A DNA stretch of 64,000 nucleotides from a virus. Its lineage: Duplodnaviria > Caudoviricetes. How positions within the stretch are numbered: the stretch's first letter is position 1; every line of letters begins with the position of its first letter. Below the pieces are notes generated by a model. The model ran no database searches, was not told the origin of the DNA, and worked only from the letters and a program-made list of their open reading frames with translations. The stretch covers positions 32,001-96,000 of IMG/VR virus record IMGVR_UViG_3300028887_000080; one strand, given 5' to 3'. Positions 14,131 to 21,189 of the stretch are shown here, one piece after another. The position numbers and the translations under genes were made by a program.

Positions 14131-14643
14131 CTATACCCAAGTTATCTTTTTGTATTCTCCGTCTTCGTAGTAACCGAACGAAAAGCACATCGGGGTTAGG
14201 AAAACTGGTTCTGTGATGATGTTCTTTTTGTATTTGTCCGCATACCCCTTGTTCATATATGCGATTGTGATATGGGGTTTGTAGGTCGTGAACTCCGTGT
14301 GGAGGGTGTAGTTCGCCTTTATCGCGGAGTTTGTCGTATGAAGCGCTTGGCATACCACGCCGCATTTCAGGACGTCGTAGTTGTCGTTGCTGAACACGCT
14401 CACGTCTGAAAGCATTGTCTTGTAGTCGTTGAGAGGAAGCAGGTGCTTTTTCAACTGTTCAAGGTTGACGTCGTTGTCGAGACAGGGAGCGAGCGTGACG
14501 TGCGTCTCGGTTTCAAGTCCATAGACGAACGGTGAATCTGGGTCGCTCGGTTTGTACAGTTCATAGTCCTTGATGCTGTTTTGGATTCCCTTTATGTAGT
14601 CAGGTGTTTGGAAGTCCACCATCAAAAATGCGTATTTGTCCAT
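14131..14643 (-). CDS. 2H phosphoesterase (Acb1/gp57B-like or RNA 2',3'-cyclic phosphodiesterase)
   Basis: Two HxT motifs: THVTL and PHITI; 170 aa; located at the end of the tRNA operon. Confidence 0.8.
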   Translation of the reverse strand: MDKYAFLMVDFQTPDYIKGIQNSIKDYELYKPSDPDSPFVYGLETETHVTLAPCLDNDVNLEQLKKHLLPLNDYKTMLSDVSVFSNDNYDVLKCGVVCQALHTTNSAIKANYTLHTEFTTYKPHITIAYMNKGYADKYKKNIITEPVFLTPMCFSFGYYEDGEYKKITWV

Positions 14644-15588: not shown

Positions 15589-15661
15589 GCAAGACCATAG
15601 GATTTGAACCTCCATTTCATCATTGGACGGATGATATTCTACCAAATTGAACTATCGCCGC
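15589..15661 (-). pseudogene. Degenerate tRNA-like element (loop CC GTC CA)
   Basis: D-loop agttcaatttggtagaa and GGTTCAAATCC present, but acceptor and T stems are mismatched. Confidence 0.55.
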
Positions 15662-15688
15662 CGGACGAAATTTTGGACATTTCGTTTG

Positions 15689-15759
15689 CAGGAGTGGAAG
15701 GACTCGAACCTCCGTCTACGGTTTTGGAGACCGTCGTTCTACCACTGAACCACACTCCT
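15689..15759 (-). tRNA. tRNA-Trp(CCA)
   Basis: acggt-CT CCA AA-accgt. Confidence 0.93.
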
Positions 15760-18152: not shown

Positions 18153-18155
18153 ATG

Positions 18156-18299
18156 CTGTTATGGCGGGACTCGAACCCGCAGTACCGCAGTAATCCTGAA
18201 CCGCGGGCAACCTTTACGTCTCACTCCCAAGACTTCTAATCTGACCGACAATGGTGACGGTTTCAAGCGAGGGTTTGCCAATTCCCCTTCACATAACAG
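18156..18299 (-). ncRNA. Expanded tRNA-like RNA (~144 nt) with insertions in the anticodon and variable regions
   Basis: Acceptor ctgttatg/cataacag, Leu-like D-loop aattggcaaa, perfect T arm gcgggTTCGAGTcccgc; ~85 nt between the D and T arms. Confidence 0.7.
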
Positions 18300-19432: not shown

Positions 19433-19546
19433 CCGCGGAGATTGGAGTCGAACCAATGTCAGGAGTTCCCAATAGCGAAAATTGCTGATAGGTTCTTTGA
19501 ACAAGAATCATTTGCTACTCCCGTTCTGCCGTTAAACTACTCCGCG
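19433..19546 (-). tRNA. tRNA-like gene with ~43-nt anticodon-loop insertion (Pro TGG if excised)
   Basis: cgcggag/ctccgcg acceptor, normal D and T arms, ggagt/actcc stem enclosing a 50-nt loop that ends TTGGGA. Confidence 0.7.
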
Positions 19547-19551
19547 ATGTT

Positions 19552-19885
19552 CCGACATAATGTGGTGTGAACCGCTGAAACCACAATCGCACTTTCGCTG
19601 TCGGGGCGAACTCCGCTTTGTTTCTCCGGAGCGGAAAACCATCACTGCATTCGTTTTGATTAACAATATACAGCATCACGGTATCGCACCGTGCTCTCTC
19701 CGCAGGGTCGCGGGCGTGTCACTTGACACCTATGTTGCAGTGATTGTATGTCCTCCCGCCCGTGCCTTTGCACATTATCTGCGGATTTGTATGGACACGT
19801 TTCAAGGTTGTGCTGAAACCCGACGCCATTCTAAATGTTATTTTAAGGAAGCGTTTAACTCTCCTAAAACTATGTGCGGCATAGT
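19552..19885 (-). ncRNA. Putative ~330-nt pseudoknotted RNA
   Basis: Helix 19641-49/19736-44 crosses helices 19699-705/19779-85 and 19710-16/19757-63. Confidence 0.55.
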
Positions 19886-19890
19886 CTTTG

Positions 19891-19961
19891 TTGAACTTGG
19901 AGGACTCGAACCTCCACCAACAGAACCAAAATCTGTTGTGCTGCCATTACACCAAAGTTCA
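19891..19961 (-). tRNA. tRNA-Gln(TTG)
   Basis: acaga-TT TTG GT-tctgt. Confidence 0.93.
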
Positions 19962-19966
19962 ATATG

Positions 19967-20038
19967 TGGGTCGGGCGGGACTCGAACCCGCAGTCCCCTG
20001 ATTAAGAGTCAGGTGCAGTGCCATTTTGCTACCGACCC
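19967..20038 (-). tRNA. tRNA-Lys(CTT)
   Basis: cctga-CT CTT AA-tcagg. Confidence 0.93.
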
Positions 20039-20042
20039 GATG

Positions 20043-20198
20043 TGGGCAGGGAAGGATTTGAACCTCCGAACCCGAATGGGAGCGGATTGGCAATGTGGGA
20101 AATTACGAATTTCCGAAACTTCATTATTCACATTGCGGTTTAACGTGTAACCTTCACGTAGTACAGTCCGCCGCGTTTAACCACTTCGCTACCTGCCC
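20043..20198 (-). tRNA. tRNA-Tyr(GTA) interrupted by a 73-nt intron-like insertion (20089-20161)
   Basis: gcgga-CT GTA [73 nt] AA-tccgc; otherwise canonical Tyr body with variable arm. Confidence 0.85.
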
Positions 20199-20210
20199 TT
20201 ATAGAATTTG

Positions 20211-20281
20211 TGGACATTACGGGAATCGAACCCGCTTTCACGCCTCCCGTTGCAGTGGGACACGCTACTGCCGTTATGCCC
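20211..20281 (-). tRNA. Atypical tRNA-Cys(GCA)-like with shortened D arm
   Basis: tccc-a CT GCA A c-ggga; intact T arm; imperfect acceptor. Confidence 0.6.
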
Positions 20282-20292
20282 TTGTTGTTATG

Positions 20293-20364
20293 TGTCACGG
20301 ATGAGACTCGAACTCACAATCCCCTGATTAAAAGTCAGGTGCATCGCCATTATGCTACCGTGGC
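20293..20364 (-). tRNA. tRNA-Lys(TTT)
   Basis: cctga-CT TTT AA-tcagg. Confidence 0.92.
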
Positions 20365-21189
20365 ATTTTTTATTTTTTGTATTATATTTTTAATGAATCG
20401 TTCTTTACATTCTTTTGGCATTTTTTTATACCGAGACCATCTTATTCTAAATAAACACGTCCATCCATTTTTTTGTAATACTTCAGTTCGTTTTTTGTCG
20501 TGTTTAACAATACGCTTGTCCAAATAATGTTGTTCCCCATCAACTTCAAAATATGTTTTTGTTATTGGAAATGCAAAATCCAAAAAATACCCAAATTGAT
20601 AATAATTTTGTTCATATTCAATATGTTCATCATTCAAAATTTGCTTAAAATACTTTTCACAATAACTATCACCGTGTGAATGATGATTTAATACATAAGG
20701 AACTTTATTCGGGTGCTTTTTCAAATACTTTTTTCTAATATCAGAAAGGTGCTGTTTTTCTTGTTCAGTATGCTTTATTCCTTTTTGTGGACTTTTTAAT
20801 TCACCGTTTTCATAACGGAGTTTAAGTGAAATTGCTGCTTGTTTAACACGCTCATCTGTCTCTTTTGTTAAACCTTTGTTCCACGGACGCTTACCCATCA
20901 TACCATTACGATATACTCTATTTTTGTTTTGTGGACACTTACATTCGTGTGCTTTAAGTGATTTTACACTATAACATTGTTTTCCACAGTATTTACAAAC
21001 AAGACTTTCATCTTTGTCGTAATGATAATTTTCATTACTATGTTTTTTTGAATATACCGCATAACCACAAACGTGATTTTCCAAAGGTTTTCTATTTGGA
21101 TTCAACTTACAAGTTCTTTCGTGAATACCCAATGCACAAGAACGTTTTAACATTTTGTTACAATACCTACAAATATACATCATTTCCAA
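20350..21189 (-). CDS. Free-standing putative homing endonuclease (C2H2-like Zn fingers + NUMOD-like segment + DUF559/Vsr-like nuclease)
   Basis: CRYC..HERTC, CKYCGK..HECKC, PWNKGLTKETD, KHTEQEK, YFLDFA..YFEVDGEQHY..D..R...L...GW..FRIRW; much lower GC than neighbours. Confidence 0.75.
   Translation of the reverse strand: MEMMYICRYCNKMLKRSCALGIHERTCKLNPNRKPLENHVCGYAVYSKKHSNENYHYDKDESLVCKYCGKQCYSVKSLKAHECKCPQNKNRVYRNGMMGKRPWNKGLTKETDERVKQAAISLKLRYENGELKSPQKGIKHTEQEKQHLSDIRKKYLKKHPNKVPYVLNHHSHGDSYCEKYFKQILNDEHIEYEQNYYQFGYFLDFAFPITKTYFEVDGEQHYLDKRIVKHDKKRTEVLQKNGWTCLFRIRWSRYKKMPKECKERFIKNIIQKIKNATVA

Follow-up and report, generated by a model that had tools for sequence, protein, structure and literature searches.

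To our knowledge, the only introns thought to occur in the tRNA genes of bacteria and their viruses are self-splicing ones. The group I introns of cyanobacterial tRNA-Leu and tRNA-fMet and of Azoarcus tRNA-Ile interrupt the anticodon loop of bacterial-type tRNAs and are patchily distributed and mobile. These introns are about 200 nt or more in length, splice themselves, follow a U and end in G; the U at the end of the 5' exon forms a U-G pair in P1, and the P3-P7 core is conserved. The introns of archaeal and eukaryotic tRNAs are small, lie next to the anticodon, are typical of tRNA-Tyr and are removed by proteins (EndA or TSEN for cutting, with RtcB or Trl1). Phage T4 reseals an anticodon loop that has been cut by PrrC, using Pnkp and Rnl1. 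The tRNA genes of Lak megaphages contain introns termed "enigmatic" (Devoto et al., 2019; PMC6784885, Fig. 4 and Table S6), which lie one nucleotide away from the canonical position, are nearly identical across cohorts and are missing in some relatives. No later published account of the excision mechanism for Lak-type tRNA introns was found in the literature.

An interrupted tRNA-Tyr(GUA) gene of bacterial class II was compared with these systems. The gene (156 nt) lies at 20043-20198 on the minus strand of the window, the stretch of 64,000 nucleotides that was analysed. This stretch comes from a virus record of 124 kb in IMG/VR that is estimated to represent 39% of its genome, which gives a phage of about 300 kb. 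A gp23-like capsid gene is present in the record, and DNA of this T4-like-capsid phage (~44% G+C) was found in runs labelled bovine gut metagenome. The interrupted gene belongs to a minus-strand cluster at 14.7-22.6 kb that also holds 26 ordinary tRNA genes, and the tRNA genes of the phage do not encode CCA. Besides 20043-20198(-), ARAGORN found no Tyr tRNA in the window or in the 124-kb record, which extends to the whole record the first-pass annotation's statement that this is the sole Tyr tRNA in the window.

The Rfam tRNA model matched the gene with 47.1 bits (E 6e-7 for the whole window), and 76 nt replaced three loop positions in the alignment. ARAGORN made no call here in default mode; with introns allowed it found a 73-nt intron but labelled the tRNA Gly(gcc), because it placed the junction elsewhere. 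When positions 20089-20161 were removed in silico, an 83-nt tRNA remained that ARAGORN called Tyr(gta), with the long variable arm, G1-C72, A73 and GUA anticodon that are features of bacterial tRNA-Tyr. The canonical Tyr loop was obtained only from a junction between tRNA positions 36 and 37, and the two other sensible junctions would place a Gly or an Asp anticodon in a class II tRNA. The 5' exon (37 nt, 20162-20198) contains the 5' strand of the acceptor stem, the D arm, the 5' strand of the anticodon stem and loop nucleotides 32-36, ending with the anticodon; its final base is A. The insert between positions 36 and 37 (73 nt, 20089-20161) ends in C. The 3' exon (46 nt, 20043-20088) provides loop nucleotides 37-38, the 3' strand of the anticodon stem, the long variable arm, the T arm, the 3' strand of the acceptor stem and A73, with no encoded CCA. 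Rfam and ARAGORN, the latter on the spliced form, agree with the initial identification of a tRNA-Tyr(GTA) with an insert directly 3' of the anticodon.

Natural alleles that lack the insert were found when the region was compared with contigs from four public runs; parts of the region that were uncovered in single runs were excluded from the evidence. The joined form in these runs skips exactly 20089-20161, joining 20088 to 20162 with no positional ambiguity. DNA run X2 contained the joined form in a close strain, with zero depth inside the insert, and this strain is identical to the window over 19700-20088 except for a 1-nt deletion at 19841. Intronless tRNA-Tyr genes with the predicted loop were also detected in L034 and L035, which were reached via a neighbouring gene family and which match the window exons at 79 of 83 positions (95%; counted from the sequences), and L029-L031 carry further intronless class II tRNA-Tyr genes. 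The boundaries of the insert are exact and are fixed by these natural intronless alleles, which skip the same stretch whose removal had been said to restore a canonical loop. The insert is optional, since close relatives carry an intact intronless gene, and it is therefore dispensable for the phage.

The computed fold of the insert contains both of the hairpins that the first-pass annotation had described. Hairpin 1 (20143-20159) has a 5-bp stem and a 7-nt loop and begins 2 nt past the 5' splice site. A 6-nt linker (20137-20142) separates it from hairpin 2 (20090-20136), which is predicted to consist of an acceptor-like outer stem of 8 bp (20129-20136 with 20090-20097), a 14-nt bulge on the 5' strand only (20115-20128) and an inner hairpin of 7 bp (20098-20114); the inner hairpin has a 3-nt loop in place of a T-loop. 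The 3' strands of the outer and inner stems are contiguous, with all extra nucleotides bulged on the 5' strand, and the only nucleotide separating the outer stem from the 3' splice site is an unpaired C (20089), which occupies the place of a tRNA discriminator base. As modelled, hairpin 2 shares its topology with the acceptor/T-arm stack of tRNAs. Folded by itself, the insert reaches -17.7 kcal/mol (z -2.7; equalled by 5 of 200 shuffles), and the fold of the full precursor, at -51.9 kcal/mol (z -3.1), accommodates the cloverleaf stems together with the insert hairpins. Both splice sites fall in strands of one three-way junction formed, in the computed fold, by the anticodon stem and the two hairpins. 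A pseudoknot between the hairpin 1 loop and the linker was unsupported, as two of the four pairs possible in the window are lost without compensation in the distant phage fragment L010, and a hammerhead-like three-way junction was rejected, its core nucleotides being missing.

The Lak introns resemble the window insert in several respects. Both interrupt the anticodon loop of a phage tRNA one nucleotide 5' of the canonical 37/38 site (Devoto et al., 2019, Fig. 4), and both occur as near-identical copies that are present or absent among relatives. By-eye comparison with the Lak Thr, Phe and Gly introns in Table S6 revealed a small hairpin 2-3 nt past the 5' splice site, as in the window insert, and an A/U-rich linker with the same short end motif as that of the window insert. 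In these three Lak introns the linker is followed by an acceptor-like stem of 7-9 bp, a T-arm, one C and the 3' splice site. The 3' splice site directly follows a single C in the window insert, in Lak Thr, where the junction is fixed by intronless alleles, and in Phe and Gly as read. The Lak introns have a T-loop, whereas the inner hairpin of the window insert has its 3-nt loop, and the middle arms of the window insert are reduced to the 14-nt bulge. Sequence likeness between the two, compared by eye, is limited to short motifs. The host gene is, unlike those of Lak, an unambiguous bacterial class II tRNA-Tyr, and the phage itself, with its T4-like capsid and ~44% G+C, is not a Lak phage. The window insert belongs to the Lak-type structured anticodon-loop inserts, a class described since 2019 and not a new kind. 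The genes listed as "Tyr GTA" in Lak A1, C1, B1 and B9 (PMC6784885, Table S6) have a short variable loop and a discriminator G, unlike bacterial tRNA-Tyr; their spliced anticodon would be GUU (Asn) if the insert ends one C past the acceptor-like stem.

The first-pass annotation left the excision route unassigned because the insert is too short for group I or II introns, shows no clear bulge-helix-bulge and is accompanied by no evident splicing endonuclease in the window. That part of its view stands, as the insert fits none of the known routes. The insert is not a one-off, as the Lak introns share its architecture, and it is optional and apparently mobile. Exclusion of groups I and II by small size was borne out by the ends of the insert, which are wrong as well. 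Rfam intron and ribozyme families gave zero matches up to E 10 over 19900-20700. A group I intron was rejected on this result, on a 5' exon that ends in A rather than U and on an insert that ends in C rather than G; the size, self-splicing and U/G ends of group I tRNA introns have no match in the window insert. Covariance models for self-cleaving ribozymes (hammerhead, twister, pistol, hatchet and HDV-like) were likewise unmatched up to E 10 over 19900-20700.

An archaeal/eukaryotic-type intron, in which a bulge-helix-bulge is cut by a splicing endonuclease, is hardly credible at this locus, even with an insert near the canonical site and in tRNA-Tyr, the classic intron carrier of eukaryotes. 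The required 4-bp helix between two 3-nt bulges could not be drawn around the splice sites in either register, the insert is at 36/37 and not 37/38, the tRNA is of bacterial type, and EndA, which had not been evident in the window, was not found anywhere in the 124-kb record. As far as sequence analysis reaches, this reading is refuted.

The three-way junction also raises the prospect of a new minimal self-splicing or self-cleaving RNA, whose active site would be the junction of the anticodon stem and the two hairpins. The location of both splice sites in the junction strands and the near invariance of the unpaired parts of the insert between distant phages would suit such an RNA. We nonetheless consider it quite improbable: no Rfam ribozyme or intron family matched up to E 10, the A and C at the ends of exon and insert do not indicate group I chemistry, and in the Lak relatives the central part of the insert is quite dissimilar in sequence. 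A length of 73 nt is also too small, being far below that of any self-splicing intron that we know of.

Copies of the insert in other samples showed how gene and insert have changed. L024 and L033, two close strains, carry the insert between exons identical to those of the window; their insert differs from that of the window by three changes, two of which form one compensatory pair in hairpin 1 (C-G to U-A). A 151-nt variant contig from run X22, about 89% identical, keeps the insert; in it A-U replaces G-C as the closing pair of hairpin 2 (20090/20136), and one C-G pair of the variable arm has become U-A. L010 also has the insert, with a 4-nt insertion in the linker and with a hairpin 1 pair, other than that of L024 and L033, changed on both sides. 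In an alignment of the window, L024 and L010, 99.2% of cells pair. Double-sided changes occur at four pairs: hairpin 1 has two of them, and the D stem and the variable arm have one each, both in L010. This outcome was reached by 1 of 500 shuffles and by none of the slid controls, and it is modest given an alignment of three sequences. Hairpin 2 is invariant in its inner hairpin and over most of its outer stem, and these parts so yield no covariation signal. Both halves of the anticodon loop are intact in every insert-bearing copy. The data are consistent with compensatory change in every stem that varies, modest as three sequences must leave this, and structural selection evidently continues to act on the tRNA around the insert. 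The possibility, raised initially, that the insert is not conserved is contradicted by the copies in L024, L033, L010 and the X22 variant, in which the stems covary.

Other searches for relatives were less productive. A search with the exact 5' junction returned chance coding sequences only, and the exact 3' exon end had zero matches. An insert-internal pattern matched only L019 in the metagenome collection, which is the same contig as L010, and a blastn comparison with 50,697 phage records returned no match to the insert. The neighbouring 776-aa protein, used as a query, retrieved no relatives, and the capsid protein retrieved one, L022, whose 121-kb record contains neither the insert nor any tRNA. 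BLAST and a covariance model built from the insert found no further copy in the window phage's record. A miniature element derived from IS200/IS605, an idea prompted by TnpB elements elsewhere in this genome, was rejected on this single copy.

The insert and its exons have diverged discordantly. Over 73 aligned positions the insert of the window shares 93% identity with that of L010, compared with 82% for the exons and 55-87% for other pairs of same-anticodon tRNAs from these phages. The window exons are nearer to the intronless L034 gene (95%) than to the insert-bearing L010 gene. Among close strains the insert diverges faster than the exons, for which reason transfer of the insert between tRNA-Tyr genes best explains its long-range conservation. 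On these identities the insert is apparently mobile; it may have been lost from some lineages.

RNA libraries were also searched for the gene. The only clean RNA-library contig over it (X9, 197 nt) retains the insert and may represent precursor RNA or contaminating DNA. A joined form in RNA run X21 was rejected as a sign of splicing, as it shares the 1-nt deletion at 19841 with the intronless DNA strain in X2, and spliced RNA was not seen in the runs examined. The search for RtcB, Rnl and EndA-like genes that the first-pass annotation had recommended found no RtcB, Rnl1, Rnl2-type ligase or EndA in the 124-kb record, which covers 39% of the genome.

A retained insert and a record in which no splicing enzyme was found are also what a dead gene would give, in which a selfish DNA insert is never removed and the loss is tolerated because the host supplies tRNA-Tyr. 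The intronless alleles of close relatives agree with this explanation, as does the fact that distant phages differ less in the insert than in its exons, which a mobile parasite would lead one to expect. A dead gene is nevertheless rather unlikely in view of the substitutions: the tRNA stems stay paired through double changes, in the D stem of L010 and in the variable arm of both L010 and the X22 variant, the covarying stems of the insert point to selection on RNA and not on DNA alone, and both anticodon loop halves are intact in all copies.

The reading that we favor, and that we regard as an evenly balanced proposition, is that the insert is a spliced, protein-processed, optional and horizontally mobile intron of the Lak family in an otherwise functional tRNA-Tyr. 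In the precursor a normal cloverleaf would form, and the insert would stand on the anticodon stem as a domain of its own with two hairpins; its removal would be the work of proteins and not of the RNA itself. RNase Z cuts tRNA precursors after the single base that follows the acceptor stem, and RNase Z-type 3' processing is expected in the host from what is known of bacterial tRNA maturation, because the phage tRNAs lack an encoded CCA. Hairpin 2, as a mimic of the acceptor/T-arm stack followed by one unpaired C, could set the 3' cut, so that cleavage by an enzyme of the RNase Z type would coincide exactly with the 3' splice site and exon 2 would begin with a 5' phosphate. The 3-nt loop in place of a T-loop would make the mimicry weaker for RNase Z. 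Were RNase P to cut where the acceptor-like stem begins on its 5' side, the cut would lie 25 nt within the insert, and a model based on tRNA trimming thus accounts for only one of the two cuts. Since RNase P does not explain the 5' site, a second nuclease and then a ligase would be needed. The second nuclease would presumably read hairpin 1 and cut 2 nt before it, and the anticodon loop would be resealed by an RNA ligase of the host or from the other 61% of the phage genome. T4 demonstrates that phage enzymes can religate an anticodon loop, as in the final step of the proposed route; T4, however, repairs damage and removes no insert, and a Pnkp- or Rnl-type gene was not found in the 124-kb record.

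The tRNA-like shape of hairpin 2, which resembles what tRNA end-processing enzymes release, also bears on an explanation in which the interrupted RNA or its fragments are the product. Such an RNA might act as a decoy against host anticodon nucleases, or a small acceptor-stack RNA might be released with tRNA halves as by-products. tRNA-Tyr is the target of a retron defence, and phage tRNAs can counter it, as reported in PMC11555353; this target and the irregular tRNA look-alike 10 nt upstream of the gene lend the explanation some appeal. An RNA product of this kind is unlikely, given that the canonical Tyr loop halves are kept exactly in all copies, that the intronless alleles are ordinary tRNA-Tyr genes and that the cluster has no other Tyr tRNA.

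If inserts such as this one are removed, as we favor for the tRNA-Tyr insert, then the bacterial world has a tRNA splicing pathway that is based on proteins, and this pathway could explain why bacteria retain orphan RNA repair enzymes, among them RtcB, LigT/ThpR and KptA. More broadly, and tentatively, it is possible that bacterial phages own a form of protein-dependent tRNA splicing, in which a mobile RNA homes into anticodon loops, its mimic of the acceptor stack is cut by the tRNA 3'-end endonuclease, and a second nuclease and a ligase complete the reaction. The window insert is a good test object, being short, in an unambiguous tRNA-Tyr and with ends fixed by intronless alleles. Its missing T-loop narrows what the cutting enzyme can recognise and, with the intronless alleles, would make it a minimal substrate for dissecting such a pathway.

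Interrupted tRNAs are not confined to the Tyr gene, and the further cases in the window and in L010 count toward a general capacity that suits the favored reading. A second one in the window, at 19433-19546(-), was matched by the Rfam tRNA model with 44.3 bits and was missed by larger scans; 50 nt replace its 7-nt anticodon loop. Its insert, about 43 nt long, is located at the loop's 5' edge and represents another type, made up of a hairpin, a short conserved motif and a second small hairpin. This type recurs in interrupted tRNAs of L024, L032, L034 and L010 (3826-3958), and the L024 counterpart is 96% identical with the middle anticodon base changed. L010 contains two interrupted tRNAs besides its tRNA-Tyr. 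The one at L010 6645-6791(-) matched with 50.1 bits and a 77-nt gap, and its insert has a 5' pseudoknot-like element, an acceptor-like stem and a true T-loop; its product would be tRNA-Lys(UUU), and not a UUA suppressor, if the 3' cut lies one C past the stem. Two ARAGORN "intron" calls in the window (15589-15726 and 18155-18298) had no Rfam tRNA support. Default bacterial tRNA finders overlook such interrupted genes, and phage tRNA sets are consequently under-counted.

Several other genes of the cluster and of related phages were noted. The cluster is closed by a gene for a 2H phosphoesterase (14131-14643, minus strand) with two HxT motifs, which is LigT/ThpR-like or Acb1-like. L026 (4469-6696) encodes a homologue of this protein (57% identity) followed by a 536-aa protein, whose N-terminal domain matched the Rnl5-type RNA ligase OB fold in Pfam (E 8e-9) and had a weak PDB match to a Naegleria RNA ligase. 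This candidate Rnl5-type ligase has no counterpart in the window phage's 124 kb, and it is a lead rather than evidence for that phage. A tRNA with a CUA anticodon, of the amber suppressor type, lies beside the 2H gene in L026 (4377-4449), and TAG may be recoded in the L026 phage.

A free-standing endonuclease gene (20350-21189, minus strand), encoding a C2H2 zinc finger and a DUF559/Vsr-like nuclease, lies inside the tRNA cluster, and most of its 189 homologues were from gut and rumen assemblies. The gene is just 5' of tRNA-Lys(UUU) in the window, L025, L026 and L032, and tRNA-Lys(UUU) is directly 5' of the gene in L027 and L029-L031. It was rejected as a splicing or homing partner of the Tyr insert, its association with tRNA-Lys(UUU) being independent of that insert. 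The tRNA look-alike upstream of tRNA-Tyr (20208-20282, minus strand) is identical in L024, and a spurious ARAGORN tmRNA call starts from it. Its T arm is good, its acceptor stem has 6 bp and its D arm is tiny; the anticodon stem has 4 bp and closes a loop of 8 nt in which GCA is displayed.
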